A stretch of DNA of 64,000 nt, taken from NCBI GenBank assembly GCA_040769125.1, contig JAXGLO010000001.1:736868-800867 (forward strand), written 5' to 3'. Made by a program: the position numbers and the translations under genes. Position 1 is the stretch's first letter, and each line of letters opens with the position of its first letter. This document shows positions 1-52,770 of the stretch, piece after piece. This stretch comes from Thermoleophilia bacterium (GTDB lineage: Bacteria; Actinomycetota; Thermoleophilia; UBA2241). Below the pieces are notes generated by a model that saw nothing but the letters and a program-made list of their open reading frames with translations, made no database searches and was not told where the DNA came from.

Positions 1-1246
1 CCACAGTGATGTCGCTCATGCCCCGGCGGTAGATCAGCCACATCCAGGACGGGTCCGGCGGGGCGACCGCCAGCTGCAGGGTGTAGCCCTCCGGTATCCA
101 GGTGGGCAGGACGGTCCAGGACGACGTCCGCCGGGGCAGCTCGGAGACGGGGAAGGCGCGCTCCCCGAGGTCGATGCCGTACTTTCTTGGCGTATCGGTG
201 GGTCGCCGTTCGCTGTACCCGTCGGGTGCGTAGGTGAAGTCCGGCTTCATCGCGAAGGTCGCGGGGTCAACCGGCTCGTTGACGCGCAGGTTCCGGATGT
301 GGAAAGGCTTGAGCTCGAGCCGGTCGGCGCCGTGCGACCCGGGGACTGCGCTCAGTCGCAAGGTGATGCCGTACCGCTTGTCGACGATCGCAACGTAGAG
401 CGGTTTTCCGCCGCTGCTGTGAATCACGGCCCGGTAGGCGGGCCGACCATGGTAGACGGCGTCGGTAAGCACCACGTTCGGCTGCTCCTGGGTGAGCGCC
501 GTTCGCAGCTGACTCGAGAGCAGCCAGATCTGCTGGACGTCGCGTGGGCCGATCAGGATGCGGCCACCCACGATGACCAGCCCGCGGTAGTAGCGGTAGC
601 GTAACGCTACCGTCTGGCGCGTCACCGGGTTCACCGACCAGGCCTTCGACTGCGTGAAGCCGGTCGCCCCATCGACGACAACACGCCTTCTGACCATCGC
701 GGCAGACATCATCATCTCGCGCTTGAAGCGCGCCGGCGTGTTGCTGCTCCTGGCCGAGAGCCAGCCCTTGCTCAGATCCCTGTAGTCGGGGAGATAGTGG
801 ACGTCGAAAGACCTGTCCCCATTGCTCGTCGCCGCGAAGTCGACCAAGCTGATCTGCGCGCCGCCCCTGCCGGGAGCTGCATCGAAGATGAACGTGCCCT
901 GCAGGGAGTTCACCCGGGTGAGGCCCGCGTCGATCACGGCGACGAGCCTGGCGGCGTTAGCCGGGGGCGGGGCAGCCTGCTCGACGTCGGGGAACCCAGT
1001 CAGGCTCACGACGGCGACCAGCGCCAGCAGCGCCGCGAACCCTACGGCGGCCAGGAAGGACGGCCGGCGCAGCCGGTTCGTCGGTCTCGCATCCTGCCGG
1101 GCGGCACCGCGCTCACGGTCGATGCCCGAGAGCGCCGGCTCGAGGCGTTCCAGCATGGCTGTGTCCGGCTCGGGCAGGTCGACGGCCTGCTCCAGCAGCT
1201 CGCCCAGCTGGGGGTTTCGCCTTCCTCTGACGTCCTGAGTGCTCAT
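1..1246 (-). CDS. Putative membrane-anchored anti-sigma factor; partial, C-terminus runs off the window
   Basis: The minus-strand frame is open from the ATG at 1246 to the window edge and was absent from the ORF track because it has no stop in the window. Its ATG overlaps the sigma gene stop (ATGA). The product has a short cytoplasmic N-terminus, one TM helix (LAAVGFAALLALVAVVSL) and a large extracytoplasmic domain. The position directly after an ECF sigma gene is typical of anti-sigma factors. Confidence 0.55.
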   Translation of the reverse strand, partial: MSTQDVRGRRNPQLGELLEQAVDLPEPDTAMLERLEPALSGIDRERGAARQDARPTNRLRRPSFLAAVGFAALLALVAVVSLTGFPDVEQAAPPPANAARLVAVIDAGLTRVNSLQGTFIFDAAPGRGGAQISLVDFAATSNGDRSFDVHYLPDYRDLSKGWLSARSSNTPARFKREMMMSAAMVRRRVVVDGATGFTQSKAWSVNPVTRQTVALRYRYYRGLVIVGGRILIGPRDVQQIWLLSSQLRTALTQEQPNVVLTDAVYHGRPAYRAVIHSSGGKPLYVAIVDKRYGITLRLSAVPGSHGADRLELKPFHIRNLRVNEPVDPATFAMKPDFTYAPDGYSERRPTDTPRKYGIDLGERAFPVSELPRRTSSWTVLPTWIPEGYTLQLAVAPPDPSWMWLIYRRGMSDITV

Positions 1247-1854
1247 GACTCCTCCGTCCGGGGCGAAGTCGGCTGGGCCGACGGCGCGCGGCCGAGGGCC
1301 GCGCGGAACTTCCCGCGCGCTCGCTGCAGCCGGGAGCAGACGGTCCCTGGCGAGGTGCCGGTGATCCCGGCGACGCTTCGGTAGTCGTAGCCGTCGCGGT
1401 CGATCAGCAGGAGGACGAGACGCTGCTTCGGTGGCAGCTGCGCGAGCGCCTTCGCGATGAGGTCTCGTTCCTCAACCTCGTCGATCGCATCGCTCCCCCT
1501 CTGAGCGCCGCTGCCGACGTCATCCGGCAGCGGCTCCTCGGGGTGCCGGCGTCTGGTGCGCAGCTGCTCGAGCGCCGCCGTGTACGCGATGCGGTGCAGC
1601 CAGGTGCCGAGCGTGGACTGCCCGCGGAATCTGGGCAGGGCGCGATAGGCGCGCAGGAAGGTCTCCTGGAGTGTGTCGCGGCTGAGCTCGTCGTCCTGCA
1701 CGACGTAGAAGACGATCGCCCGAAGCCCGGGCTCGTACTTGCGGACGAGAGCCGCGAACGCTTCGTGGTCGCCGCTCTTCGCTGCCTCGAGCACATGATC
1801 GGGAAGCTCTCGCGACAGGGCGTCGCCGTCGACCGCGCTTCCGCCTGCTGACAC
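1243..1854 (-). CDS. ECF (sigma-70 family) RNA polymerase sigma factor
   Basis: Sigma regions 2 and 4 are visible (EAFAALVRKYEPGLRAIVFYVV ... LQETFLRAYRAL ... LPPKQRLVLLLIDRDGYDYRSVAGITGTSPGTVCSRLQRARGKF). The maximal ORF reaches 1998; I favour the GTG at 1854, which has a purine-rich SD-like sequence upstream. Confidence 0.8.
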   Translation of the reverse strand: MSAGGSAVDGDALSRELPDHVLEAAKSGDHEAFAALVRKYEPGLRAIVFYVVQDDELSRDTLQETFLRAYRALPRFRGQSTLGTWLHRIAYTAALEQLRTRRRHPEEPLPDDVGSGAQRGSDAIDEVEERDLIAKALAQLPPKQRLVLLLIDRDGYDYRSVAGITGTSPGTVCSRLQRARGKFRAALGRAPSAQPTSPRTEES

Positions 1855-1983
1855 TCGTTCGCCCCCTCTCGACGCCGCTCGCGGCAGTTGTCGGAGTCTC
1901 AGCCTGAATCTCAGCCCGAATACTACAGACGCGGCTTCCACCCGGCTCCTCTCGACCGCTTTCCTCATTAGATGCCGGGAGAG

Positions 1984-2110
1984 GCTGAAAGCATCCATGT
2001 GGTGCTGAAAGCGTCCACGCTGGTGCCGCCGAAAGCATCAACGCGGCGCTGAACGCATCCACGCGGTGCTGGAAACGTCCACGCGAGGCTTAACGCATCC
2101 ACGCGGCGTG
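1984..2110. repeat. Tandem array of about six ~20-21-nt repeats (consensus near GCTGAAAGCATCCACGCGGT) between the sigma and kinase genes
   Basis: Read directly in the sequence: gctgaaagcatccatgtggt / gctgaaagcgtccacgctggt / gccgccgaaagcatcaacgcggc / gctgaacgcatccacgcggt / gctggaaacgtccacgcgagg / cttaacgcatccacgcggcg. Confidence 0.8.
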
Positions 2111-8136: not shown

Positions 8137-8254
8137 GCCGGTCGCTCCGCTCGCCGGCCGGCGTTCGTTGCCGTGCGACTGGATCAGGCGGTTAGCCGGC
8201 GGAATCCGCGCTTGTCAGGCGTGCTCACGCAGCGGCGAACGAGATGTTCAGGTA

Positions 8255-8332
8255 CTCGCGGCCGGCCGCTCGTGAGGCCGCCGGCGCCACGGCGAGTCAG
8301 CTTGACCCGCTTGTCAGTGGTCGGCAGTCCGC
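8255..8332. repeat. Copy a of an ~80-nt GC-rich repeat element that abuts toxin-antitoxin modules
   Basis: ctcgcggccggccgctcgtgaggccgccggcgccacggcgagtcagcttgacccgcttgtcag... aligns with the elements at ~30756 and ~31287. It ends directly at the brnA stop codon. Confidence 0.6.
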
Positions 8333-9814: not shown

Positions 9815-9890
9815 GCCCTCGTAGCTCAGTGGATAGAGCACAGGTCTCCTAAACCTGGTGTCGAAGGTTCGATTCCTTCCGGGGGCACCA
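9815..9890 (+). tRNA. tRNA-Arg (anticodon CCT)
   Basis: Cloverleaf read in gccctcgtagctcagtggatagagcacaggtctCCTaaacctggtgtcgaaggttcgattccttccgggggcacca: 7-bp acceptor stem, D-arm GCTCAGTGGATAGAGC, anticodon loop cuCCUaa, T-arm GGTTCGATTCC, encoded CCA. Confidence 0.85.
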
Positions 9891-10365: not shown

Positions 10366-10475
10366 CTCACGTGGATAGCAGCCTTGGATGTCTGCCAGGC
10401 TTCCCTCTGCGATAGCTGCACGCGCGAAGCAGTCGGAGTTTGCTACAAAGTCTACAGTTATAGCATAATATGTGA

Positions 10476-13400
10476 ATGGATGTGAATGACGGACAGCGCA
10501 ATTGGCTCAACGTTCGAGAGGTCGCTCAGCGGTTGGGCGTGCACGAGAACACAGTGCGGAATTGGACCAAGAAAGGCCTGCTGTCGGCAGCTCGCTTACC
10601 CGGATCCAGGTTCCACAGGTACGACCCGGGAGACGTAGAGAGACTCCTTCTTCAGAGAAAAAGCACTCCGACCTCGCTGTCGCGGCAGCGACTGACTATA
10701 GGGCCAGAACTTGTCAACGCCGGTCAGTTGCGCGCGTGGGCGGGAACGCGTGAGGCTCAGGCTGTGTTCCCCGAATTGATTCGGCGGCTCCTTACGCACA
10801 CGCCTGGCGTAACAAACATATCCATTCGGGCAGGCGATTCCGTGTCTGCACCTGGATGGGATGGTTGTGCGACCTCAGCCGGAACGACTTTCCTGCCGGC
10901 AGGCGAGTTGCGCTTTGAGTTCGGAGTCGATAAGTCGCCGAGGCGGAAAGCCGATCACGACTACAAGGTTCGTGTTCGCCAGCTCGATGGCGAGCCTTCT
11001 AATGCCACGTTCATCTTCGCGACGCCCCGACGGTTCAACAACGCATCAAAATGGGCTGAGAGCAGACAGTCGGAAGGTGCTTTTGCAGGCGTTCGCGTGC
11101 TCGATGCGGACGACCTAGAAGGCTGGCTGCAGACCACGCCCGTTGTCCATCAGTGGATTTCGGAACAGCTCGGCCGGAGGCCAAGCGATGCCCGGACTCT
11201 CGATGAATGGTGGGCTCGGTTTCGAGAGCGTACGAAGCCTCCTCTCCATCCTGGCATTTTCCTAGCGGGCAGAGAGCGCGAGCAGAAGATGCTGGGCGAG
11301 TTCCTTGAGGGCCCACCGGGCGTTCTTTCAGTTCGTGCTCCTTGGCGCGATGAGGCGATCGCGTTCGTGGCGGCAGTGACGGCTGCTCGAGCGAGCCAGG
11401 GCTTGGTGGACTCCATTGGGGTCATCATCAGTTCCGCCGAGGCGTGGGACCGGGTTGTCGATCAGGTGGGGTATGGCACCCTGCTGCCTCTCATCGAGGC
11501 CCCAGGAGTGGCGCGGGCATTGGATCGTGGACATCACGTCATCCTCCCGATTGCGCTGGACGCGATACCTCGAGGCGACACCATCGACCTTCCGCGACCA
11601 GATCGCAACGGCATAATAGAACTTCTCGAAGAGGCTGGGATCTCGTCGCACCGTGGGCACAGGCTTGCTGCCCTGGCCAGGCGCAGCATGCCTTCCTTCA
11701 TTAGGGAGTTGGCGGTCGATCGCACCCTGAATCGTCCGGAGTGGGCCAGCCCTCATGCTGCGCACATTGTGGCTCCTCTCGTCCTTGTGGGTTCATGGAC
11801 AGATACCGAGGCTGACGTCGGAATCGTCGAGAGACTAGTCGGGAGGTCTTGGTCAGACATTGAGCGCACACTACGTGCGCTGAGTGCCACGGAAGATCCG
11901 CCGTTCCTCAGTCGAAGCCGGCGGTGGTATCTCGCTTCGCCACAGGAAGCCATTCTCGTGCTTGCAAGTTTGATTACGGCCGAGGACCTCGCTCGCTGGC
12001 GCGAGGCAGTGTTCGATGTTCTCCTGGAGGTGGACCCCCGGCTGGATCTGAGTCCCCATGATCGCTCCATGGCTGCCGTGACCGGATCAGTGCGCCGCTT
12101 TTCGGGCGCCTTGCGCAAGGGGATCGCTCAAGGTGTCGCTCTTGTTGGGACCCTGTATGACTACCGATTGAGTGGCGGGCAATGCGGCGCAGATCATGCT
12201 CGGGTGCTCGTGCGCGAGATTCTGACTCGTGCGAATGCCGACACAACAGGCCGCACCTGGCAGTCACTCGAGGATGTGCTTCCGCTTTTAGCTGAAGCGG
12301 CGCCGAACGAGTTTCTTGAAGCAGTTCACCTTGATCTCGACCGGGAGGAGCCACTCTTGCGCGACATGTTCCAGGATCGCGATGAGGGTGACCCACTCTC
12401 CTCCTGGTCACCGCACACGGGTCTACTCTGGGCACTTGAGGTGCTCTGCTGGTCTCCCGACTATTTGGCGGATGCGACTTGGGCTCTAGCTCGGCTGGAC
12501 GCCATTGATCCTGGAGGCAGGTTGTCCAATAGGCCATTGAGGAGCTTGGGTAGCGTCCTCGCAGGGCGGGTGCGCCAGACCTGCGCATCGCTCGAAACGC
12601 GTGTGTCGGCTGTGAAAGCAATCTGCCAGCGTGTGCCCGAGACGGGCTGGCAGCTGCTCCTTGCCCTTTGGCCCAGTCATGATTCATGGGCCATGCCGCC
12701 CGTCTCGCCTAAGTTCGAGGACTGGGAACCGGAGAGCAAGAACGTCCTCTTTGTCGAGTACGTCGAGTTCATTGGCGAGCTTGTCCGGCTGGGCGTTCAG
12801 ATGGCCGGCCATGATGCGGTGCGATGGGCTGAGCTGAGCGGCAGGCTCGGCTCACTTCCTCCTAGCGAGCGCGACGAACTGCTGGCGGCTTTCGAGGAGG
12901 TAGTCCAGGATCCGGAAGGCTTCAACAAAGATGAGCGACTCCTGTTATGGGAGCAGCTGCGCCAAACGGTGGAGCGTCACAGGCGCTACCCCACAGCGGA
13001 TTGGTCTCTGAAAAGAGCGCCGCTGGTGCGAATGCAGGCCATTGTTGATCATCTGGAGCCGGTCGATGCAGCGGCACGACTTGCCTACCTGTTTGACTGG
13101 CGTCCTGATTTACCCGGGGTCAATCCGCTCGATCACACCGTGTACGACCGCGAGCTTCTTGATCGCCAGACCCGCGCCCTCGTCGAAGTTTTGCATGACT
13201 CGATCGGCGGCCTCGATCGGCTAGTAGGGCGAAGCCCAGCCCCGGAGATGGTGGGGCGGGCACTTGCCGGAGTCGATTCAGAGGACCTGATTCCTGACTT
13301 GCTGGCATGGATTGTCTCTGATGATGAGAAGCGGCAGAAGTGTGCGAGCGCATGGGCTGTACGGAAGATTCAGGATCACGGAGTGGCGTGGCTGCGCATG

Positions 13401-14453
13401 GCGTTGGCCCTGGAGGGCGCTGCACTTCCAGCGTGTCGCGAGCAGCTTGCGCTCAGCGCAACGCCTAACAGGGAGGTGTGGGACTTGCTGGCAGAGGTCG
13501 ACGCAGAATTGAGCGACGCCTACTGGCAGCAGGTGAGCATATGGCAGCTCGCTCCCGGGGACGTTGAGCGCGCAGTGACTGAGCTGATGTCTCGCGGGCG
13601 GCCATGGGCGGCTCTGGCGCCAATTGCTCTTCATATTCACGATGCCGACGAGGCCACCATTATGGTCACCCCAGATCTCGTGCAGGGGCTGCTTGACGCG
13701 ATGCTGCGTACGGCTCCGGGAGACGCCGCGTCCCAGGCTCCTGGGGATGAAGTGGAGATTCTCCTCGACTACCTAGAGAGCCATGTTGACGCAAGCGTTG
13801 TCGCCCGCTACGAGTTCGGCTTTTTTCCATTACTGGAGTACTGGCGCCAGCCTCGCTCGCTGTTCGCGGTGCTCGCTCGTGATCCGGATGAGTTTGTTGC
13901 GCTGGTACAGCTGGCTTATCGCGGTAAGGACGAGTCAAAGCGCTCGCTAGACGAGCGCGATCAGGCATTAGCGCGGTGTGCCTTCCGGGTTCTTGAGCAC
14001 TGGAAAGGCACCTTCCCTGGGTATGAGGGCGGGACGCTTCGCATGGACGGACTGAGGCAATGGGTTCGACAGGCTCGGGACGCCTTGGCGGAATCCAACA
14101 GGGCAGATATCGGAGACGAGCAGATTGGTCAGGTTCTTGCGCGAAGCGCCGTCGGTGCCGATGGCATTTGGCCAGCGGAAGGCGTGAGGGAACTGATCGA
14201 GGAGATCGGCAGCGAGGGGCTGGAGACGGGCCTGTACATCGGTCTCCGCAATCAACGTGGCGTCACTAGCCGGAGGCCGTTCGAGGGCGGACAGCAAGAA
14301 CGCGATCTGGCGGCGAAATATCGTGCCTGGGAGAAGCAGACAGCGGGGCGGTGGCGTCGTACGAGCCGCCTTCTGCGGTGCGTGGCCGAGAGCTACGAGC
14401 GAGATGCCCGGCGCTGGGATGATGACGCAGAGCTGTTGGCTGATACGGACTGA
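10476..14453 (+). CDS. Large (1325 aa) protein with an N-terminal excisionase/MerR-type HTH and a C-terminal region of unknown function
   Basis: Uninterrupted 3978-nt ORF. The N-terminal motif LNVREVAQRLGVHENTVRNWTKKGLL ... RYDPGDVERL is HTH_17-like. The remainder is alpha-helical and Trp/Leu-rich. It contains a P-loop-like but lysine-less segment, LEGPPGVLSVRAPWRDEAIAFVAAV. I find no intact Walker A, helicase or nuclease motifs. Confidence 0.85.
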   Translation: MDVNDGQRNWLNVREVAQRLGVHENTVRNWTKKGLLSAARLPGSRFHRYDPGDVERLLLQRKSTPTSLSRQRLTIGPELVNAGQLRAWAGTREAQAVFPELIRRLLTHTPGVTNISIRAGDSVSAPGWDGCATSAGTTFLPAGELRFEFGVDKSPRRKADHDYKVRVRQLDGEPSNATFIFATPRRFNNASKWAESRQSEGAFAGVRVLDADDLEGWLQTTPVVHQWISEQLGRRPSDARTLDEWWARFRERTKPPLHPGIFLAGREREQKMLGEFLEGPPGVLSVRAPWRDEAIAFVAAVTAARASQGLVDSIGVIISSAEAWDRVVDQVGYGTLLPLIEAPGVARALDRGHHVILPIALDAIPRGDTIDLPRPDRNGIIELLEEAGISSHRGHRLAALARRSMPSFIRELAVDRTLNRPEWASPHAAHIVAPLVLVGSWTDTEADVGIVERLVGRSWSDIERTLRALSATEDPPFLSRSRRWYLASPQEAILVLASLITAEDLARWREAVFDVLLEVDPRLDLSPHDRSMAAVTGSVRRFSGALRKGIAQGVALVGTLYDYRLSGGQCGADHARVLVREILTRANADTTGRTWQSLEDVLPLLAEAAPNEFLEAVHLDLDREEPLLRDMFQDRDEGDPLSSWSPHTGLLWALEVLCWSPDYLADATWALARLDAIDPGGRLSNRPLRSLGSVLAGRVRQTCASLETRVSAVKAICQRVPETGWQLLLALWPSHDSWAMPPVSPKFEDWEPESKNVLFVEYVEFIGELVRLGVQMAGHDAVRWAELSGRLGSLPPSERDELLAAFEEVVQDPEGFNKDERLLLWEQLRQTVERHRRYPTADWSLKRAPLVRMQAIVDHLEPVDAAARLAYLFDWRPDLPGVNPLDHTVYDRELLDRQTRALVEVLHDSIGGLDRLVGRSPAPEMVGRALAGVDSEDLIPDLLAWIVSDDEKRQKCASAWAVRKIQDHGVAWLRMALALEGAALPACREQLALSATPNREVWDLLAEVDAELSDAYWQQVSIWQLAPGDVERAVTELMSRGRPWAALAPIALHIHDADEATIMVTPDLVQGLLDAMLRTAPGDAASQAPGDEVEILLDYLESHVDASVVARYEFGFFPLLEYWRQPRSLFAVLARDPDEFVALVQLAYRGKDESKRSLDERDQALARCAFRVLEHWKGTFPGYEGGTLRMDGLRQWVRQARDALAESNRADIGDEQIGQVLARSAVGADGIWPAEGVRELIEEIGSEGLETGLYIGLRNQRGVTSRRPFEGGQQERDLAAKYRAWEKQTAGRWRRTSRLLRCVAESYERDARRWDDDAELLADTD

Positions 14454-14567
14454 GTGCCGCGCAGTCGGCAGCACTACTGACACCGGCTGGCGCTGGCTTC
14501 ACGCCGGCAAGCTCGCGAACCGGCCGTACATCAGGCGCTTCTGCGCTCCTCAGACGTCGTGTAGGCC

Positions 14568-14677
14568 TGTGCACGGCGCCTGGCTCGCAGCCGAATCCTG
14601 CTTACGAGTCGCTCCTTAATGGCTTGTCGCGATCTCGTTACCGCAACCTCCGTCACCCAGCAGTGATAGCGTGCCAG
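14568..14677. repeat. Copy 1 of a ~110-nt imperfect direct repeat (about 80% identity to 19053..19162)
   Basis: tgtgcacggcgcc...cgagtcgctcct...cctccgtcacccagcagtgatagcgtgccag; the final ~40 nt are nearly identical between copies. Confidence 0.75.
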
Positions 14678-14721
14678 CCGATTGACAGGCGCATATTCCT
14701 TCCGGATAGGGGGGTGTTGAT

Positions 14722-15669
14722 GTGACGCGCAAGCGTTGGCTCATGCTTGTTGCCGTGGCGGCCGTGGCGATCATCGCCGGTGTGCTGGCGTGGGGGCTGA
14801 GTGGCTCAACGCTCACGGCCACCGTAGTCGACAAGCGAACCGGCGAGCCGCTGCCGAAGGTCGTCGCTAAGGTGGACGATGAGTCCATCTCTACGTCAGA
14901 TGGACGAGTCGACGTCAAGATTGCGCTCGGGACGCACACAGTCGAGTTTGCAGCGGCGGGCTACGAGACCGTCTCGCGCACAGTGGAAGCGCGCATCTTC
15001 CGCGCGGCCGATCTTGGCGAAGTGCCCCTGCGCAATGCAGATCTGGTCATCAAGGTGGTCGAGAACTTCCCCGGTGAACCACCGGTCAAGGCGGCCAGGC
15101 TTGAGGTCGCCGGTGAGACCAGCATGGTGCGACGGGGTGACGCGGTGACAATCGAGGGCCTGGCAATCGGCCCGACTACGCTGAAGGCTACAGCCAGGGA
15201 CTACGAACCTACGAACGTCGAGCTCGAGCTAACGCCGGGGTCGAACGAAGTCGTTGTCAGCCTGACCCCCGAGATGCTCGTTGTCGTGCGGCGGGCGATA
15301 CAGGCCTCTTTCGACCACGACCACTTGCTGAACTGGGAGCTCCTGCATCCGGATCGCCAACGGCTGCACGGCTCGCGGGCCGCATACCTCAAGAAGAGGC
15401 GAAGGGCTGTTGATGAGCTGCTCGACGAGGGCATCGTCCCCCAGCGCTTTAAGGTCTTGACCCCCTTCTTCGTCAAGCGCTACCACGACAAGGCCACCGG
15501 CAAGACTTACAAGGATGCCTACCGCGTGCCCATCACGATATGGGCGGGAGCCCCTCAGCTGGCCATCTTCAACATGAAGTCGATGGCCGTGACACAGGAC
15601 AGCTACTGGGTGAAGACGGATGAGGGTCGCTGGGTAAGCCTCGGTGACGGTGAATCGGTGGACAAGTAG
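14722..15669 (+). CDS. Membrane-anchored protein with carboxypeptidase-regulatory-like (Ig-like) domains
   Basis: N-terminal TM/signal anchor WLMLVAVAAVAIIAGVLAW, then TATVVDKRTGEPLPKVVAKVDD ... GTHTVEFAAAGYETVSRTVEA, which is typical of CarbopepD_reg-like folds. Confidence 0.75.
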   Translation: MTRKRWLMLVAVAAVAIIAGVLAWGLSGSTLTATVVDKRTGEPLPKVVAKVDDESISTSDGRVDVKIALGTHTVEFAAAGYETVSRTVEARIFRAADLGEVPLRNADLVIKVVENFPGEPPVKAARLEVAGETSMVRRGDAVTIEGLAIGPTTLKATARDYEPTNVELELTPGSNEVVVSLTPEMLVVVRRAIQASFDHDHLLNWELLHPDRQRLHGSRAAYLKKRRRAVDELLDEGIVPQRFKVLTPFFVKRYHDKATGKTYKDAYRVPITIWAGAPQLAIFNMKSMAVTQDSYWVKTDEGRWVSLGDGESVDK

Positions 15670-15809
15670 AGTCCCGGCCTCTCGCCCAGAACAGCATCGT
15701 GAAGCAGGGGAACGGCGGTCTCGCAAAGTCATCACTGTGTGGAGTGCCGGCGCCGCTGGCGTGACCTTCCCTATTGGCAACGGTGTGTCGAATAGAGCGC
15801 CCTGTACAG

Positions 15810-16118
15810 GTGATCTTGAGGGCAGATAGGTTGAGGGGTGGTGTGGCGGGCTTTGGTCTGGTGCTTGTGTCAGCGGGACTTGCTTCCTGCAATGGGAGAG
15901 CTGTCGTGTCGTACTCCAAGGCTGGAGCGAGGAGGCCGGCATGCCTGACCTGTGCGAGACGCTTCTACTCGAGAGCAGCTGGACGTCCTGATTGCGGAGC
16001 TTACGGCGCTGCGCTTCGAGATGCCTCTGTTGAAGGACCGGTGAGGGAGCGTTGGGCGTGCGGCATCCTGCAGTTCAGCCGAAGCGAAGGGCCGTTCGAG
16101 GAGCGAGGCGATGAGTGA
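15810..16118 (+). CDS. Putative small Cys-rich lipoprotein
   Basis: The GTG at 15810 gives a signal peptide ILRADRLRGGVAGFGLVLVSAGLASC with lipobox L-A-S-C. The stop TGA overlaps the ATG of the next gene (gATGAgtga). The track ORF starts at ATG 15774. Confidence 0.35.
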   Translation: MILRADRLRGGVAGFGLVLVSAGLASCNGRAVVSYSKAGARRPACLTCARRFYSRAAGRPDCGAYGAALRDASVEGPVRERWACGILQFSRSEGPFEERGDE

Positions 16119-16821
16119 CCCGGTCGATGTCCTTGAACCCAATCCGATCTTAGGGTTGATCAAGTTCGGCGCCGCTGCCCACCTGCGCGAACTGTGCCTC
16201 CAAGGGCGCCTTTTCATGAATGCGCTGAACTACTTCAGGCAGCTGAATGATGATCCGGCGCGAGGCGACGGCGATGAGGGCCTCATGTACTGTTATCAGC
16301 CCTCTCGTACTGCAGTGGAGGTCCGAGCGAAAGGCACCTGGCAACGAGTCGGGGGTATCGTTGGTCCCATCAAGTGCCGCGAGGGGAACGGCACGAACGG
16401 GAACCTGTTCTGCATGTTCGCGCTCAGAGCAAGCCATGCTGTGGCCTTTGCTGAGGCGAGGCGCCCGCTCATCGACGAGCGAAACCGGGCTTTCGGAGAC
16501 AGCGCTGTCGTCATCACTGACGTCGACGAGTTCCTGCGGCGTGTGACCGTCGCCACAGAGCGGGAAGGTCTGAGGCTGTACGCAAGACCTGTTAACTACG
16601 TCAACCAGCACAGCTACCATGGGCCCATGGGGTTCTTTCGCAAGTTCTCCGACTACTCATATCAGAGCGAGTTCCGACTGCTGGTCAAACCAGGGTGCAC
16701 TGGCCCGCGCTCCCTTGAGTTGGGCTCGATCGAGGACATCGCGGTGATGGTGGCCTCGGAGAGCATCAACAGCCTGCTCCGGGTGAGATCGGATGACGGA
16801 GGAGTGTACGGCCCTCCATGA
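16111..16821 (+). CDS. Hypothetical protein (236 aa), candidate effector
   Basis: Clean ORF coupled to the upstream ORF. Its N-terminal pattern LGLIKFGAAAHLRELCLQGRLFMNALNYFRQL resembles conserved N-termini of several phage-defence-associated families, but I cannot assign it to one. Confidence 0.7.
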   Translation: MSDPVDVLEPNPILGLIKFGAAAHLRELCLQGRLFMNALNYFRQLNDDPARGDGDEGLMYCYQPSRTAVEVRAKGTWQRVGGIVGPIKCREGNGTNGNLFCMFALRASHAVAFAEARRPLIDERNRAFGDSAVVITDVDEFLRRVTVATEREGLRLYARPVNYVNQHSYHGPMGFFRKFSDYSYQSEFRLLVKPGCTGPRSLELGSIEDIAVMVASESINSLLRVRSDDGGVYGPP

Positions 16822-16888
16822 TGCCGCGCCGTGCGCTGATGGTGGCGATGTGATGTCAGTAGGGGCTGTCCAAAGAACGGAGGGATTG

Positions 16889-17458
16889 ATGATTGTTCTG
16901 GATGTTCGGCTCGTTGGCTGCGAGTTCGAGGAGGCTGACGTCGCCGCCGTGCGCCGCGAGTCCACCTCGGTCTTGGCGCTGAGGGCGACTGGCCGGGGTT
17001 CGACAGGGGCCGGCCCAGGGCTCGAGGTCACAACGGTCATCTACTTTATTGGCGGGTCTTTCGTGGGCTTTGTGCTCGAGAAGGTCTTCGACGCCGTCTG
17101 GGAGCGGCTGAGGAGTGCCTGGACTCGCTTTCGTGACGACCGCAGGAGTCGGCAGCGGTCTGATCCGACCTTCGGCAGGGTGGTCATCCGCACGGATGAT
17201 ATGGAGGTCGAGATCAGGCGTCTGGACGCCGACATTGAGCCCCCCGATCTCAGCGGGCTCCTTGAGCTAGTCGCGAATCGTCTCGAGAGCGGGTCACTTC
17301 GCGAGGTGCCCGTCGACAGCATCACGATCCCGCCGCCGCGCTCGGTGGGAGGTCCTCGCGACCGGGCTCAGGATTCGCAACTCTGGTATGTGGTGGCTCG
17401 CTCGATTGAGGGGCGCTGGGGACTCTACGATGCCGGCGAGGATCGCTGGCTGGACTGA
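16889..17458 (+). CDS. Hypothetical protein (189 aa from the ATG at 16889)
   Basis: Strong RBS (ACGGAGGG, 5 nt before the ATG at 16889). Longer in-frame alternatives at 16853 and 16793 overlap the preceding gene. One hydrophobic segment, VTTVIYFIGGSFVGFVL. Confidence 0.55.
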   Translation: MIVLDVRLVGCEFEEADVAAVRRESTSVLALRATGRGSTGAGPGLEVTTVIYFIGGSFVGFVLEKVFDAVWERLRSAWTRFRDDRRSRQRSDPTFGRVVIRTDDMEVEIRRLDADIEPPDLSGLLELVANRLESGSLREVPVDSITIPPPRSVGGPRDRAQDSQLWYVVARSIEGRWGLYDAGEDRWLD

Positions 17459-17661
17459 ACTGGTGGCGCCAACGTCCTTGATCTGGGCCTGGCGCTCGTT
17501 TCTCAATTAGCCTTCGGGCTTGCCAGCACGCCGTTGGTAGCAGCTCCACGTGCAGATCTTCTTACCTGGGTGGATGTTATGGAAGCCTGTGCAGCGAGGC
17601 TTTCGTGAGAACGGGCGCCCTCCCGCGCTTTAGTAGGTACGATGATCGATGTAATGAGGCG

Positions 17662-18864
17662 ATGAAAGGGCGGCGTGTGGAATACCGCATCACAGCAGAG
17701 GAACGGATCCCTAACAGTGGAGAGGATCGCACCCCCCGCTACCAGTTTAATATTACTGGTGGTCGCAATGAGACTGTGTGCTCTATACATGCATTGGGAT
17801 CTCTCAAAGCATGCGGATCTCTCAGTGAAATCGACTGGGAGGAAGTACTGAGTATGGTAGCGATCGATCAGATCGAGAGGACGCTCTTGGCAGATGCGCT
17901 CGACTGGTCGATCAATCCTTACCGTTGGGAGGTCAGTGATGAAGAGACCATCTTGAACGTAGACCGCGTCTCGAAGCTATGCGACATGCGCCTTCCGGCC
18001 AAGCCAAGAGGATTTCTATGTGCGGCCACAGAGACAGGCGATCCTGAGCCCACGACTCTGCCACTTTGCATGACGTGCGATATGCCGGACGCGCGCCTTG
18101 TCTGCAGTGGCTTGGTGCATCCGGTGACAGCCCTATCTAAAGCAGACGCCGACACGCTCTCACTCTCGGGCAATAGCGCGACTGCCGCGGACAATGTCGG
18201 TTTCAAGCGGAGCGTCACGAGAGCGTTTTGCGAGGCCCATCCCGAGTCTCAAGACTGGAAGAAATGTCGCCCGTGGCTCAGAGGCTGCTGGTACAGGATT
18301 GTTGATACGAGCGAAGCCGCGCCGTCACCTGACAGTGCCGCACCTAGGCGCATCGTGGATGAAGTCGGATACTTGCGCCTTGTGTACGCCGATCGTTTCC
18401 GGGTGAAGGCGAGTGAATTCTGGCCAAATCGCGATCCCAGTGCATATGCTGTCCTTCTTGATGATTCGTGTACGTCTCCTCGTCAGTTTGCGCACAACAT
18501 AGTCGTTTTGGACGATGTGCTCAGTGCCATGAATCCTCACGAGCAGCTGGCTGAAGACCGCAGGAAAAACGGCAGCCGTGTGAATGGAATCACGGCCATG
18601 GGTCGTGTCCTTGAGGATTGTATTGACGGTACAGACTGCTCTTACGTCAAGCCACTTCAGGCGTTGAAGACCGTTCGCAACTCCTTCTCGCACCAGCCTG
18701 GTGCCAAGTTGCTGGAAGCCCTGGGGACGCTCGGGGTTCAGTCCTATCCGCCCCACGATTGGCAGATCGCTTGGTGGCAAGTCGCCGCATCCGTGGCTCA
18801 GGCGCTCGCATCGATTCGATGGATACTCCAGACAACTAATGTCGACGATCCACAGGAAAGTTAG
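17662..18864 (+). CDS. Cys-rich protein with a C-terminal HEPN-like Rx4H motif (Abi-like)
   Basis: Start at MKGRRV (GAGG RBS). Several CxxC-type clusters in the N-terminal half. Near the C-terminus LQALKTVRNSFSHQPG fits the R-x4-6-H HEPN RNase signature seen in Abi_2/AbiD-like proteins. Confidence 0.7.
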   Translation: MKGRRVEYRITAEERIPNSGEDRTPRYQFNITGGRNETVCSIHALGSLKACGSLSEIDWEEVLSMVAIDQIERTLLADALDWSINPYRWEVSDEETILNVDRVSKLCDMRLPAKPRGFLCAATETGDPEPTTLPLCMTCDMPDARLVCSGLVHPVTALSKADADTLSLSGNSATAADNVGFKRSVTRAFCEAHPESQDWKKCRPWLRGCWYRIVDTSEAAPSPDSAAPRRIVDEVGYLRLVYADRFRVKASEFWPNRDPSAYAVLLDDSCTSPRQFAHNIVVLDDVLSAMNPHEQLAEDRRKNGSRVNGITAMGRVLEDCIDGTDCSYVKPLQALKTVRNSFSHQPGAKLLEALGTLGVQSYPPHDWQIAWWQVAASVAQALASIRWILQTTNVDDPQES

Positions 18865-19052
18865 ACGAGGTGATTTCCCTCTCGCGTTCTCGTGTCGCCG
18901 CTGAAGCGGGTTTCCTCTGATTATGGCGCTTCCGTTGCTTGGCGCGGGAGCGTTGTGGCTTGTCACCAAGTGCCTCGGCGCATTGGCGATAGTCGTCGGA
19001 TAATAATGACTTTGCAGATGCCTCTTCTTGCGGCTGACAGATCGTGCATACT

Positions 19053-19162
19053 TGTGCACGGCACCCGGTTCGCAGGCGAATCCCCCTCGCGAGTCGCTCC
19101 TCAACAGCCTGCCTCGCTCTTGCGGCCGCAGCCTCCGTCACCCAGCAGTGATAGCGTGTCAG
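19053..19162. repeat. Copy 2 of the ~110-nt imperfect direct repeat
   Basis: tgtgcacggcacccggttcgcaggcgaatccccctcgcgagtcgctcct...cctccgtcacccagcagtgatagcgtgtcag. Confidence 0.75.
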
Positions 19163-19253
19163 GTAATCGGTAGGCGCTCATTCCCTCCGACCGTGTATCT
19201 ACGTCCGCGGCATCGATGAGCGCCGTAGGGGCGGCGTAGCAGCGAGGTGAGAT

Positions 19254-25223
<5,970 letters not shown>

Positions 25224-25436
25224 GCGGCGGCAGCGTCAGGAGGTCGGCTGCAAGGGGCGGCGCTGTTTACGTGCGTCTTGACGCCTGGCTTTGGCAGGTG
25301 CCGGCGGCCCGCCGATAGGACGCAGAGCCGGCTCAGGCGCGGGCGCGTCGGTCGTCGGCTGAGCCGTCCTCCATGACGGCCGCAGCGAGCCGTGCACCTT
25401 GATTCTCAACGCGCTCTGTGTACAATTCAGTCACTG

Positions 25437-25480
25437 CTCCCCGTCGTCCGGGCTTCGGCCCGAACTGACGGGGTTTTTTT
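25437..25480 (+). terminator. Putative rho-independent terminator (GC hairpin followed by a T7 run)
   Basis: ccgtcgtccgggcttcggcccgaactgacgggg followed by ttttttt. Confidence 0.4.
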
Positions 25481-25488
25481 GGAGGCGC

Positions 25489-26112
25489 ATGGATTCGGCT
25501 CGCGTCATCGTGTTCCTTGACTACCAGAACGTCTACAACGGTGCTCGTGAGGCGTTCGGTCTGCGGGCTAAGGCCGGTCGCTACGGCCAGATCGACCCTC
25601 TCCGCTTGGCAAGGCTGATCGCCGACCGTCATCCGGAGGAGAGTCACGTCGCCGGTGTGCGTGTGTACCGGGGGCGCCCCGAATCGGCCAAGCAGCCGAA
25701 GGCGTACGGCGCCAACATGCGTCAGTCGGACGCCCAAAAGAAGCGTGGCGGCGGCCTGGTCAAGATCATTACGCGCACCTTGCGCTACCCTTGTAGCTGG
25801 CCTCATGAGCCGGCCCAGGAGAAGGGCATCGACGTGGCGCTGGCCGTCGACTTCGTCACCATGGCCATCAAGGGTGAGTACGACATCGGTGTGCTCATGT
25901 CGACCGACACCGACCTCATCCCGGCGCTCGAGGCAGTGATTGCCCTCGGTGGTCACCCCTACCCGCGCTGCGAGGTCGCGGCTTGGTCGAGTCCTGGCAC
26001 GTACTCTCGTCGTCTTCAGGTGCCCGGCAAGAAGCTCTGGTGCCATTGGCTCTGCCGTGAGGACTACGCCAAAGCCGAGGACCTCACCGACTACAACCGG
26101 CACGGCTCCTAG
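25489..26112 (+). CDS. NYN-domain (LabA-like) protein, putative RNase
   Basis: VIVFLDYQNV ... EKGIDVALAVDFV ... VLMSTDTDLIPALE are NYN/LabA hallmarks. GGAGG RBS before the ATG at 25489 (the track ORF starts at TTG 25399). Confidence 0.75.
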   Translation: MDSARVIVFLDYQNVYNGAREAFGLRAKAGRYGQIDPLRLARLIADRHPEESHVAGVRVYRGRPESAKQPKAYGANMRQSDAQKKRGGGLVKIITRTLRYPCSWPHEPAQEKGIDVALAVDFVTMAIKGEYDIGVLMSTDTDLIPALEAVIALGGHPYPRCEVAAWSSPGTYSRRLQVPGKKLWCHWLCREDYAKAEDLTDYNRHGS

Positions 26113-28047: not shown

Positions 28048-29457
28048 CTACTGCTGCTGCTTGCCCGCGCCGAAGGCCTGCCTGAGCTCCTCCTCCTGCT
28101 CCACGGAGAGGTTGGAGCGCACGAGCTTGGCGTTCGTGCCCTCGACCGCTGCCATGAACTTGTCCTCCGTGAGCTGCTTGATGATGAGGAACCAGCCGGC
28201 CTTGCCCGGCGGCACTGCGTCGCCCATCTGCTCCAGCACCCGGCTGTCGAGGCCCGTCTTGCCGAGCTTGCCGAAGAGCGCCCCCATCCCAGCGCCGAGC
28301 GCCATGCCGAGGAACGGCATGAAGAACAGCAGACCGAAGAGCATGCCCCAGAAGGCGCCGCCCATGGCGCCCGCGCCGACCAGGCGATGACCGTGCTTGA
28401 CGTGCGGCTTGCCGTCGGGGTCGCGGACCACTTGGGCCGCGTCCTCCAGCTGGACGATCATGTCCTTCTGCATCTGCGCCAGCTTCTCGCCGAACTGGTC
28501 GGCCTCGAGCTCGCTCTCGAAGCCGAGGACCATCATCTCACTCAAACCAACTCCTCCTTCATTTTGTTGCGTTCCTGAATCGAACTCTTCTCGCCGTGGC
28601 TCAGAGACGCCGGAGAGCTGCTCGGCGAGCAGCACCCAGAGAGCCCCGAGCAGCGAGTCGCAGCGCAGCTCGAAGCCGCTCTTCGGTCGCAACTGGGGGG
28701 AGAGGTGCTCGCCGAGCGATTCGTTGATCTCGCGGTAGAGGAAGTACTCAAGCGGCTCCAGGTAGCGTTCGTGGTCGAGGGAGGAGCTGCACCAGCGTCT
28801 GAATTGAGCGAGGTCGTCGGGGCTGAGCGTGAATTCTTCGCGCAGGATCGAGACCTGCGTGGTCTCCGCATCTCCGGGCCACCGATACACGAGATCGACC
28901 GCCTGCCCATCCTCGCTCCAGCTCACCAGCTGCCGCACGCGGTCGATGTCGGCGCTGCGGTAGGCGTCGAGTAGTTCGACGAGTCCGCCTATCCGGCGGA
29001 TAGCGCGACGCCAGTCGGCGTGGTGTTCGCCTGCCCGCGCCCGGCTGTCTGTTGACGCAGGCTTGATCGGCAAGCTGGAGACACCGAGCCTTCCGTAGCG
29101 GGTGGCGAAAGCGGCCAGGGCCTCGAGGCTGGCGTCGTCTTCGCCGAGCGGCAGGCGTGCGAACTCGAGGTGCAGATCGCGGTTCTGGCGAAGCGGTTCG
29201 TAGGGGTTGCCGTGCGCGGGAGTGAGCAGCCAGGGCCCTGCGGGGTCGTCGTGAAAGCGCGTCGATAGATGCACGGCGTCCGGCCACTTGAGCTCGTAGT
29301 CACGGTGCCACTCGCAGGGTGCTTCGGGGCGCATCCAGCTGAACTGTATCGCCGGCTCACTCGTGCTTTGACGGTAGCTCTCCGTGCCTCTCCTTTGGCA
29401 GGGGGACATGTCACAGACATAATATAGTCGAGATGCCTCGAACCGGTAATGATTCAA
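28048..29457 (-). CDS. Two-domain protein: an unknown ~270-aa N-terminal domain (paralog of 46385..47167) fused to a DUF1269-like glycine-zipper membrane domain
   Basis: Residues ~28-290 are about 85% identical to the 260-aa protein at 46385..47167. The C-terminal part GAGAMGGAFWGMLFGLLFFMPFLGMALGAGMGALFGKLG ... is DUF1269-like. Confidence 0.7.
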   Translation of the reverse strand: MNHYRFEASRLYYVCDMSPCQRRGTESYRQSTSEPAIQFSWMRPEAPCEWHRDYELKWPDAVHLSTRFHDDPAGPWLLTPAHGNPYEPLRQNRDLHLEFARLPLGEDDASLEALAAFATRYGRLGVSSLPIKPASTDSRARAGEHHADWRRAIRRIGGLVELLDAYRSADIDRVRQLVSWSEDGQAVDLVYRWPGDAETTQVSILREEFTLSPDDLAQFRRWCSSSLDHERYLEPLEYFLYREINESLGEHLSPQLRPKSGFELRCDSLLGALWVLLAEQLSGVSEPRREEFDSGTQQNEGGVGLSEMMVLGFESELEADQFGEKLAQMQKDMIVQLEDAAQVVRDPDGKPHVKHGHRLVGAGAMGGAFWGMLFGLLFFMPFLGMALGAGMGALFGKLGKTGLDSRVLEQMGDAVPPGKAGWFLIIKQLTEDKFMAAVEGTNAKLVRSNLSVEQEEELRQAFGAGKQQQ

Positions 29458-30672: not shown

Positions 30673-30755
30673 GGCAATCTCCTGGTCGATACGCTAACAC
30701 GTACAGGATAACGTATCGAACTTCGATGCGAAAGGGAGTTGAGCCTAGCGTACCG

Positions 30756-30836
30756 CGGATGAGCTGCGAGCGCGCCGGCCACCCGTGAGGCCGCCGGCGC
30801 TCCTGCGAGTCAGGCTGATCCGCTCGTCAGGCGGCA
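30756..30836. repeat. Copy b of the ~80-nt repeat element; it overlaps the last four codons of higA
   Basis: ggatgagctgcgagcgcgccggccacccgtgaggccgccggcgctcctgcgagtcaggctgatccgctcgtcaggcggca. Confidence 0.75.
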
Positions 30837-31217: not shown

Positions 31218-31286
31218 GAAGACGAGTGTAACGCGTCACGTGACAATAGTCAAGGGTGACGCTGGGCTGTCCGTCTAACATTGGGC

Positions 31287-31366
31287 GAATGAGCTGCGAG
31301 CGCGCCGGCCGCTCGTGAGGCCGCCGGCGCCTCTGCGAGTCAGGCTGATCCGCTCGTCAGGCGGCA
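31287..31366. repeat. Copy c of the ~80-nt repeat element
   Basis: gaatgagctgcgagcgcgccggccgctcgtgaggccgccggcgcctctgcgagtcaggctgatccgctcgtcaggcggca is nearly identical to copy b. Confidence 0.75.
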
Positions 31367-32974: not shown

Positions 32975-34012
32975 CTACGGCCGCGCGGTGCCGCGTGGCG
33001 CCGACCGGCGACGCAGGGCGAAACCAAGCGCTACGGCGACCGCGAGCACAATGAGCGCTCCGATGATGCCGGAGAGGCTGGTGCCGGCGGCTGCGTTCGC
33101 CCCGTCTGGCTCGTCGCCTTCGCTCGACTTCAGGCTGTAGTCGGGCAGGATCGCCGTCTTCGCTTGCGCGTCGGCCGCCGCCTGGTGGGTGCCGGAATCG
33201 GCGACGAGTTCCTCCTCGGTCCCGGTGACCTTGGCGATGGACCATTCGAGGCCATCCGGGTACGCCGATGCGTACCACGACAGAACGCCGCCGGTGACGA
33301 GCGCGGCCACGGCGAGACCGATGACGACGGGCTTGAGCCGCAGGCCGCGCAGCGGCGTACGCGTAGCGCTGCGCTCGAGGAGCCCCGGCTCGGCGCGCCG
33401 GACGAAGAGCACCACGGCGGCGGTTATGAGACCTTCGACCACCCCGATGGCGAGATGGATCGGCAGCATCATGAGGGCGAAACTCCCGAAGGACAGCTCG
33501 GTGATGCCCGACGCGGTCGTCTCGACGACCACGCCGAACGCACCGAGGAGCAGGCCGAGAACAGCGGCGAGCACGCTTCCGGCGACGACGCGCGACCGGC
33601 TGAGGTCGGTGCCGGCGCCGGTGATCTTGCGGTAGACGAGCGGGTAGGCGATGAAGGCCGGGAAGAAGCCCAGGTTGAAGACGTTCGCTCCCAGCGCGAG
33701 CAGCCCGCCGTCGGCGAAGAAGAGCGCCTGCACGGCGAGGATCGAGGCCATCACAAGGAAGGCGGCCTCCGGCCCTAACAGGATCGCGAGGAGGAGGGCT
33801 CCGCCGATGTGGCCGCTCGACCCCGTGCCGGGGATCGTGAAGTTGATCATCTGCGCCGCGAACACGAACGCCCCGGCGACGCCCATGAGCGGGACCTTGC
33901 TCTCGTCGAGGTTCTCGCGGACCTTACGTGCGCTGTAGGCGACGGTCACCCCGGTGGCCACCCACATCGCGCCACCTACGGCGGGCGAGAGAAGAGCATC
34001 TGCCATGTGCAT
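32975..34012 (-). CDS. cbiM: ECF-type Ni/Co transporter substrate-capture component (CbiM/NikM fused to a CbiN-like C-terminus)
   Basis: N-terminus MHMADALLSPAVGG; the Met-His N-terminus is needed for metal binding. GAAGGAG RBS before this ATG. Polytopic TM core and a C-terminal PDGLEWS-containing extension. Confidence 0.8.
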   Translation of the reverse strand: MHMADALLSPAVGGAMWVATGVTVAYSARKVRENLDESKVPLMGVAGAFVFAAQMINFTIPGTGSSGHIGGALLLAILLGPEAAFLVMASILAVQALFFADGGLLALGANVFNLGFFPAFIAYPLVYRKITGAGTDLSRSRVVAGSVLAAVLGLLLGAFGVVVETTASGITELSFGSFALMMLPIHLAIGVVEGLITAAVVLFVRRAEPGLLERSATRTPLRGLRLKPVVIGLAVAALVTGGVLSWYASAYPDGLEWSIAKVTGTEEELVADSGTHQAAADAQAKTAILPDYSLKSSEGDEPDGANAAAGTSLSGIIGALIVLAVAVALGFALRRRSAPRGTARP

Positions 34013-34284
34013 CGGGCGGCTCCTTCGACGTTCGTCCGCCCGGCGAACCCACCCCTGCGGGGCGGGAGCGCCGCGTCCATGTGCTGCCGTGTTACGGACA
34101 GACAAGTCGTGCTACTATGCCGCGACTGTACGGGAATCTCGCGCGGACGTCAAGAGGTACACAGACCGTGGCACGACGAGAGCCGGGGGGTTGCTTGGCA
34201 TGGCATGCTCAGAGCTCACAAGTGACATGATGTGGGCGCTCGGCCGGCTCGTGACGGGCACGAAGAATGGAGAACGGAGGCGTG

Positions 34285-34701
34285 ATGGCGAACGTGGTGC
34301 GGTTCGGGGTGTCGATCGATGAGCGCCTGCTCGAGCGGTTCGACGCGCTCATCGCCGAGAAGGCCTACGTGAACCGCTCGGAGGCGCTCCGCGATCTCAT
34401 CCGCGCCTCGCTCGTCGAGGAGCAATGGGAGAAGGACGAGGGCGAGGTCGTCGGCACCGTAACGCTAGTCTACGACCATCACACCAGCGATCTCACCGAG
34501 CGGCTCGCCGAGAGCCAGCACAGCCATCACAAGGAGATCGTGTCGACGCTGCACGTCCACCTCGACGCGCACAACTGCCTCGAGGTGGTCGTCCTTCGCG
34601 GCGCGGCGCCGGACCTCAAGCGCATCGCCGACGGGCTCATCGGCACCAAGGGCGTGAAGCACGGCAAGTTTGTCGCCACGACGACCGGTGAGCTCGCCTG
34701 A
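34285..34701 (+). CDS. nikR: Nickel-responsive transcriptional regulator
   Basis: RHH N-terminus ([19 protein letters not shown]) and a C-terminal metal-binding domain with the HxxxxH ... H ... C signature ([26 protein letters not shown]). GGAGG RBS. Confidence 0.85.
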
Positions 34702-34713
34702 GCGAGGTGCCCC

Positions 34714-52559: not shown

Positions 52560-52770
52560 GGCTTGCCTATACTCTGTTGAGGATTACTCTCAGCTGCTGG
52601 GAATCCGGTCAAAGGCCGGAGCTGCCCCGCAACTGTAGGCGCAGACGATCACCGCATTGTGCCGCCGTCTCACGACGTGAAGGCACGGTCGGTAGTCCGA
52701 AGCGCAAGCCAGGTACCACGGCTGGGAGTGCATCGCGAATAGACCTCGAGGGAGGGCTGCGGTGAGCTTG
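52560..52770 (+). ncRNA. Cobalamin (B12) riboswitch upstream of the cbi operon
   Basis: The conserved core gggaatccggtcaaaggccggagctgccccgcaactgtagg plus a downstream gaaggcacggtcgg B12-box-like segment. Position is ~50-250 nt upstream of cbiA. Confidence 0.6.

Follow-up and report, generated by a model that had tools for sequence, protein, structure and literature searches.

A duplicated 148-nt intergenic segment as a possible shared promoter of an accessory gene block and a Type I restriction-modification operon in a Thermoleophilia bacterium

C-protein operators are known from restriction-modification (R-M) systems. Operators of the BrxR/WYL type are found upstream of BREX and other defence systems (PMC9122601). 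In a high-GC actinobacterium, TANNNT is the -10 motif at 91% of the mapped start sites, and the -35 element is far weaker (PMC6614810). The stoperators of Cluster A mycobacteriophages are 13 bp long, occur a dozen or more times and have a known repressor (PMC9283540). Here we analysed a stretch of 64,000 nucleotides (nt) from a Thermoleophilia bacterium (assembly GCA_040769125.1, contig JAXGLO010000001.1, positions 736,868 to 800,867), hereafter the window, in which two diverged copies of an intergenic sequence, copy A and copy B, bracket a block of accessory genes. Copy A precedes this block, and copy B precedes a Type I R-M operon, hsdMSR.

The repeat pair and its invariant core

Copy A (14557-14704) and copy B (19042-19189), both on the plus strand, align without gaps over 148 nt at 77% identity (blastn E=5e-29), and their starts are 4485 nt apart. 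An earlier note on this DNA had placed the copies at 14568-14677 and 19053-19162 with about 80% identity. These 110 nt indeed contain 21 mismatches (81% identity), and the pair is confirmed as real and longer than first noted, extending 11 nt further upstream and 27 nt further downstream. Beyond the 148 nt the similarity falls to background at once on both sides, and gaps do not extend the alignment. Exact, mismatch-tolerant, profile and covariance searches all found exactly two copies in the 64 kb. The two-copy arrangement is not an assembly artefact, since it recurs at 100% identity in two independent Logan assemblies that each span the pair.

Each copy lies between the stop of one gene and the start of the next, as the earlier note had described. 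Copy A occupies a 268-nt gap between a 1325-aa gene and a 315-aa gene, beginning 104 nt past the stop of the former and ending 18 nt short of the GTG of the latter. Copy B lies in a 389-nt gap between a 419-aa gene and hsdM, beginning 178 nt past the stop of the 419-aa gene and ending 65 nt short of the hsdM GTG.

The 34 mismatches between the copies comprise 26 transitions and 8 transversions. An unusually conserved part is the 27-nt core CCTCCGTCACCCAGCAGTGATAGCGTG, at 14647-14673 in copy A and 19132-19158 in copy B (plus strand), which is identical in the two. It is the longest identical run between the copies and is longer than uniform divergence predicts (permutation, P=0.013); outside it the divergence is about 28%. 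Even when three mismatches were allowed, the core occurred twice in the window, against 0 expected. A core of 40 almost identical nt had been proposed earlier. The sequence quoted for it is these 27 identical nt, whereas the near-identical tract measures 37 nt and contains just two mismatches (permutation, P=0.04).

The 148-nt element is non-coding. One plus-strand frame is open in both copies (a 63-aa open reading frame, ORF, at 19028-19219), and a small ORF or coding remnant was considered and rejected. The mismatches fall 13/12/9 on the three codon positions with no third-position bias, and the best frame gives 71% amino-acid identity, below the 77% nucleotide identity. The GC contents of the three codon positions (GC1/GC2/GC3) are flat in the ORFs that overlap the copies, unlike those of real genes, and a blastx search against all retrieved proteins returned no pseudogene remnant. 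Two other candidates were rejected as well. A template/variable pair of a diversity-generating retroelement does not agree with mismatches that are mostly T/C and C/T, with an A in copy A at 6 of the 34, and the larger window ORFs that were scanned hold no reverse-transcriptase domain. A larger segmental duplication is not indicated by tblastx between the block and its two flanks, which gave only scattered low-score noise.

In the collections searched, the element is confined to this locus. For the 20-nt centre of the core there was no match in the representative genomes of 185,579 species. Its one match in 241 million JGI metagenome records lies within a gene and has unlike flanks, and the one match of an 18-mer of the core in IMG/VR is equally unrelated; both are attributable to chance. 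A blastn search of the element against plasmid and phage collections was empty. The six public contigs that carry the locus, all from Logan, match the window at 99.8-100% identity with an unchanged arrangement; they are the same strain. Since none of the public collections searched yielded a true homolog, the repeat is not, in those collections, a generic multi-locus element, the outcome that the earlier note had named as adverse to its view. The element is an orphan sequence without a family, but of a familiar kind.

A candidate promoter and its competing explanations

An extended -10-like motif, TGATAGCGT (TGnTAnnnT), lies in the core of both copies on the plus strand and may be a promoter element. 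It is located at 14664-14672, 50 nt before the GTG at 14722, and at 19149-19157, 97 nt before the hsdM GTG at 19254. In both copies it has the TANNNT of a sigma-70/HrdB -10 element, the optional TG and a suitable distance from the gene. The motif TGNTANNNT occurs 18 times on both strands of the 64 kb (25 expected). Nine of these 18 sites are intergenic, whereas intergenic sequence makes up 16% of the window (binomial P=8e-4). Eight of the nine, including both core sites and a site 45 nt ahead of tRNA-Arg, face the start of a same-strand gene or tRNA 19-149 nt away.

All genes between 10476 and 25223 are on the plus strand. Three sigma-70-like sites were found in all between 9.6 and 27 kb, and the sole one heading this 15-kb co-directional array is TTGCTA-18-CATAAT at 10440-10469. 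This site ends 7 nt before the ATG at 10476, suggesting a leaderless start of the 1325-aa gene. No intrinsic terminator was found between the units of the array in the same region. Since the sole canonical site of the array is the one at 10440-10469 and no terminator separates the units, an internal promoter must be non-canonical. The -10 region of the 10440-10469 promoter, CAGTTATAGCAT, and the repeat core, CAGTGATAGCGT, are alike at 10 of 13 positions, possibly by chance.

The Type I R-M operon behind copy B (19254-25223, plus strand) consists of hsdM (19254-20837), hsdS (20821-22092) and hsdR (22089-25223). The HsdM protein is 71-88% identical to proteins of Binatia, Planctomycetota, Acidobacteriota, Chloroflexota, Proteobacteria and other phyla. 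In comparisons with 80 hsdM loci and with an 87%-identical hsdM relative, the nucleotide homology of hsdMSR begins inside hsdM (at 19276 or later) and stops at the hsdR stop, and the repeat element is absent from all of these loci. The sequence ahead of hsdM is therefore local, as would be the case had a horizontally acquired operon landed behind a promoter segment already resident there. The GC skew is positive over 10.4-19.1 kb, turns negative at about 19100 and stays so through hsdMSR. Together with the homology ending at the coding block, this sign change points to a recent horizontal spread of the hsdMSR module.

We tentatively favour the reading, at a probability of roughly 0.4, that the repeats are an old lineage-specific duplication of a promoter/operator segment, through which the block and hsdMSR receive the same internal promoter. 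The copies would be paralogous non-coding descendants of a promoter-bearing intergenic region, copy A heading the accessory block from the 315-aa to the 419-aa gene and copy B heading hsdMSR. The extended -10 TGATAGCGT in the conserved core would drive transcription of each unit, with starts about 7 nt past the -10, near 14679 and 19164, and leaders of about 43 and 90 nt. A short dyad in the core, GTCAC-N6-GTGAT (14652-14667 and again 19137-19152, plus strand), overlaps the -10-like motif and is a candidate operator, at which a bound repressor would block RNA polymerase. Its exact matches in the window are confined to the two copies. The copies also carry a 5'-terminal inverted repeat on the plus strand, CGTGTA-N6-TGCACG in copy A (14558-14575) and CGTGCA-N6-TGCACG in copy B (19043-19060), with conserved arms and a spacer that is not conserved. 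Each dyad alone (GTCAC-N6-GTGAT or CGTGYA-N6-TGCACG) is statistically unremarkable. Control of both units would then be joint and would not depend on the leaderless promoter at 10440-10469. Promoter activity, operator role, co-regulation and the choice of any regulator are inferences. The sole helix-turn-helix (HTH) nearby is the N-terminus of the 1325-aa protein, and its role as regulator of the core is only a guess. Shared promoter or leader elements had been among the explanations offered in the earlier note, and this is the best supported of them: the core holds the rare TGATAGCGT 50 and 97 nt before the two starts, but the likeness is one of motif, with no -35 partner.

Several observations weigh against a duplicated promoter/operator. 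There is no -35 hexamer 16-19 nt upstream of TGATAGCGT in either copy; the hexamers at spacers of 16, 17, 18 and 19 nt (AACCTC, CAACCT, GCAACC and CGCAAC) match TTGACA at no more than 2 of 6 positions, and a consensus promoter scan found no site in copy A or B. The intergenic excess of TGNTANNNT comes mainly from depletion within genes, which hold 9 sites against 33 expected, compared with 9 against 7 expected in intergenic sequence. A promoter alone would also leave unexplained why the 95 nt 5' of the core are 72% identical, and a short gene-conversion tract would give an identical core equally well. The arms of the GTCAC-N6-GTGAT dyad are just 4-5 bp long, and with one mismatch allowed the dyad has 4 sites against 3.7 expected, not rarer than chance. 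No small regulator gene, whether of the WYL, C-protein or another type, was found near the repeats. Furthermore, no relative carries the element, either at the loci of the 1325-aa, 315-aa and hsdM relatives or in the collections.

If the core does work as a promoter/operator, the accessory block, which encodes an Ig-like membrane protein, two orphan proteins and a HEPN-like Rx4H protein, would be switched together with a horizontally acquired Type I R-M system. Such co-regulation would hint at a role of the block as a defence or R-M accessory module, and the core would offer a concrete site for regulator fishing. The locus would then illustrate how a resident promoter segment is re-used to express the newly captured genes of an island. 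Such a duplicated promoter region would be fairly ordinary.

A possible, less probable account is that the pair is a functionless relic, in which 148 nt of spacer were duplicated in a single illegitimate or homologous recombination event as the island took shape, for example at the capture of hsdMSR, and have drifted since, the core being due to a short gene-conversion patch or chance. The evenly spread and transition-rich mismatches (26 against 8) resemble neutral drift; no structure, coding signal or homolog was found; and the P values of the core (0.013 and 0.04) are modest and would be accounted for by gene conversion. However, a rare promoter-type motif falls in the conserved tract, sensibly spaced from both starts, and both copies have kept their position relative to the following gene. 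As a mere duplication relic, the pair would be without wider significance.

The co-directional genes from 10476 to 25223, with no terminator-like site between the units, would also suit a long polycistronic transcript from 10476 in which the element, placed once ahead of each downstream unit, acts in cis as RNA, in processing or stability, put/nut-like antitermination or translational control. We regard this as unlikely. The conserved arms and unconserved loop of the 5' hairpin agree with it, as does the plus-strand consensus fold, for which RNAalifold on the two sequences gave 37 pairs, none broken, and three double changes. The energy of this fold was below that of randomly mutated partners (z -1.9 / -1.65, P ~0.04-0.05 on two sequences), and the minus strand gave no signal in the same comparison. 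Against this, at least three compensatory pairs arose in 36-40% of the random-mutation controls (P ~0.4), and the column-shuffle z of the consensus fold was -1.25. The single-sequence RNA folds gave z-scores of -0.3, -0.3, -0.8 and +0.2, and across RNA and single-stranded DNA folds the z-scores of the repeat were -0.3 to -1.0, so that it is not more stable than shuffled sequence. The minimum-energy folds of copies A and B differ. No Rfam match was obtained at gathering thresholds or up to E 10, and a covariance model retrieved no further member in 1.13 Mb of related loci. The plus-strand fold signal is too weak to serve as the basis for an RNA reading, and the small structured RNA suggested in the earlier note is unlikely: Rfam gave nothing, the single-sequence scores were unexceptional and the compensatory changes did not exceed those of random mutation.

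A leader hairpin that hides the ribosome-binding site in both copies was also considered. Copy B has a stem spanning 19173-19224 on the plus strand (-18.6 kcal/mol, P<0.0005), which lies 30 nt ahead of the hsdM start and has a 32-nt loop. Its left arm, GGCGCTCATT (19173-19182), belongs to the repeat, and its right arm, GATGAGCGCC (19215-19224), lies beyond it. The corresponding pairing in copy A does not exceed that of shuffled sequence, so the hairpin is not a shared feature and this candidate was rejected. The GATGAGCGCC arm holds an ATG that opens a 7-codon mini-ORF (19216-19239). An attenuator is one possibility for the copy-B stem, and a remnant of an earlier gene start is another.

The earlier note had further proposed att-like scars of an insertion. 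Here the block would have entered by site-specific recombination that left attL/attR-like copies, whose 27-bp identity could still allow excision; we consider this improbable. An identical core between 72%-identical arms is what recombination at diverged homologous sites would produce, and the copies bracket the block exactly. The GC content of the region is below that of its surroundings, and this lower-GC island is located beside tRNA-Arg(CCT) (9815-9890), behind a protein of a phage-associated family whose cargo varies between relatives. A 27-nt identical crossover core is a feature of attL/attR pairs that alone is not specific. However, no recombinase domain was found in the block or in the larger window ORFs scanned (the small ORFs were not all scanned), and the contigs on record all carry the block in one arrangement, with no empty site or junction. 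The attC boxes GTTRRRY and RYYYAAC are absent from the repeat ends, and the repeat has no attC-type dyad or foldable strand, the top- and bottom-strand DNA folds being not significant. The compositional break is at copy B, where the GC skew changes sign, rather than at copy A; the block thus resembles the neighbour upstream of it, and hsdMSR is the odd one out. The view that the repeats delimit a five-gene cassette was right about the bracketing but not about the cassette, which is not a conserved unit, because the sole relative of the 315-aa protein (68% identity) sits alone in a different context with no element upstream. The identical core between diverged arms is thus the part of the scar proposal that fits, while a recombinase, attC features, an empty site and a break at copy A were not found.

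A tRNA-derived att site was also rejected. The 3' end of copy A shares an 11-nt match, ATTCCTTCCGG, with the T-arm/acceptor region of tRNA-Arg; copy B has no similarity to this tRNA, and the 3' end of the tRNA is not repeated elsewhere within 32 kb.

A more far-reaching proposal, to which we assign a very low probability, is that the 148-nt element is the cargo-entry site of a family of phage-like integrative elements of Actinomycetota, marked by the 1325-aa HTH protein (phrog_18693), in which defence modules without a recombinase of their own are captured by recombination at the 27-bp core and gain the promoter of the element. Such a site would amount to an integron-like capture-and-expression platform without a known integrase, its modules bracketed by diverged copies. 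The least probable explanation, a generic dispersed repeat of the repetitive extragenic palindromic (REP), bacterial interspersed mosaic element (BIME) or miniature inverted-repeat transposable element (MITE) type with two copies here, would suit an intergenic sequence of about small-MITE size with a short 5' hairpin, but such repeats have many dispersed copies and this one has two in 64 kb and no true database matches, the rest of the source genome being outside the reach of the search; its ends (TCGTG... and ...TCCG) are not inverted repeats of one another, and the sequence shows neither terminal inverted repeats nor flanking target-site duplications.

Neighbouring genes and other features of the window

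The gene upstream of copy A (10476-14453, plus strand) encodes the 1325-aa protein, whose first 60 residues form an excisionase/BldC-like HTH and the rest of which belongs to phrog_18693, a family of unknown function that it matches end to end (E=1e-138). The family has 889 matches at E<=1e-10, of about 1320-1340 aa, in metagenome-assembled genomes of Actinomycetota, including those of Thermoleophilia, Solirubrobacterales and Gaiellaceae, and the best relative is 57% identical. At four loci around relatives with 54-55% identity, the downstream genes were all different, one locus had a serine recombinase, and the repeat element was absent. The varying downstream genes and the serine recombinase suggest that the 1325-aa gene is conserved as the backbone of a mobile or phage-like element whose cargo varies. 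No PDB relative of the 1325-aa protein was found, and IMG/VR held no relatives of the 1325-, 419- or 236-aa proteins.

All genes of the block are on the plus strand. The first gene after copy A (14722-15669) encodes the 315-aa protein, which has an N-terminal hydrophobic stretch and a CarboxypepD_reg (Ig-like) domain. It is followed by an unusually long gap of 441 nt (15670-16110). A 114-aa ORF in this gap (15774-16118), with flat GC1/2/3, is missing from the gene calls of public assemblies, so that a further regulatory or RNA feature may lie there. The 236-aa protein (16111-16821) matches phrog_26561, of unknown function. The next protein has 189 aa according to the Logan contigs (16889-17458; 221 aa from the longest ORF start at 16793) and no family match. 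The last gene before copy B (17605-18864) encodes the 419-aa protein with an RNSFSH motif (Rx4H, HEPN-like) about 60 residues from its C-terminus. The GC content of this gene, 0.57, is below that of its neighbours, and the protein has no sequence match in Pfam, NCBIfam, PADLOC, PHROG or PDB.

On the other side of copy B, the closest hsdM relative retrieved with its flanks (87%) has AAA_13 and AAA_14/DUF4143 genes between hsdS and hsdR. Directly 3' of hsdR in the window, on the same strand, is a gene for an NYN-domain protein (a predicted RNase; 25399-26112). A sigma-70-like match lies across its annotated TTG start, and the gene therefore probably begins further downstream.

Other repeats were observed in the window. 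An 82-nt GC-rich direct repeat at 30755-30836 and 31285-31366 (94% identical, 530 nt apart) contains a GCGCCGGCC...GGCCGCCGGCGC palindrome and has a third, 62%-identical copy at 8242-8323; a REP-like or terminator-like nature is possible. Two minus-strand genes, one for a 469-aa DUF1269 protein (28048-29457) and one a 260-aa ORF (46385-47167), share a 300-nt direct repeat (28605-28904 and 46387-46686, 85% identity) that probably represents paralogous domains. Tandem repeats were found at 61483-61620 (33-nt period, four copies), inside the gene at 60677-62416, and at 1984-2106 (20/44-nt period), at the start of an extracytoplasmic function (ECF) sigma-factor gene (1243-1998, minus strand). Upstream of a 510-aa gene (52818-54350) is a cobalamin riboswitch at 52598-52718 (Rfam RF00174, 54 bits), and cobalt-transport genes for CbiM and CbiQ lie at 32975-35526.

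Comparison with known systems

The dispersed repeats of the REP/BIME/MITE kind resemble the element in being non-coding, intergenic and about 150 nt long. They differ in that the present element has two known copies, no palindromic core or terminal inverted repeat, and nothing comparable in the searched databases. With attL/attR pairs and the attC sites of chromosomal integrons (Vibrio cholerae repeat, VCR, type) it shares direct repeats of about 100-150 nt and about 80% identity that bracket genes, and an identical core between diverged arms. Unlike in integrons, no integrase, R''/R' boxes (RYYYAAC/GTTRRRY), imperfect dyad or foldable strand was found, and the bracketed sequence is a 4.5-kb block with four or five genes rather than one promoterless ORF, with no array.

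Actinophage stoperators and put/nut sites are likewise oriented, repeated intergenic sites, and here too a phage-related element is suggested by the PHROG family of the 1325-aa protein. However, there are two copies of a 148-nt segment here, which is unlike stoperators, and the defined structures of phage put/nut antitermination RNAs are not supported for it.

The nearest likeness is to promoter-operator segments that place neighbouring defence operons under one regulator, such as the BrxR and C-protein operators, in that a short conserved dyad site lies just upstream of defence-type operons, including R-M operons, in a region that resembles a defence island. This likeness comes from sequence alone, and the present element differs in having no WYL, C-protein or other small regulator gene that we could find, a weak dyad, and a 148-nt unit that far exceeds the length of an operator. 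The actinobacterial extended -10 promoters (PMC6614810) differ in that no -35 is recognisable at the present locus; they resemble it in the plausible spacing of TGATAGCGT, and the same motif class precedes a tRNA and several genes of the window.

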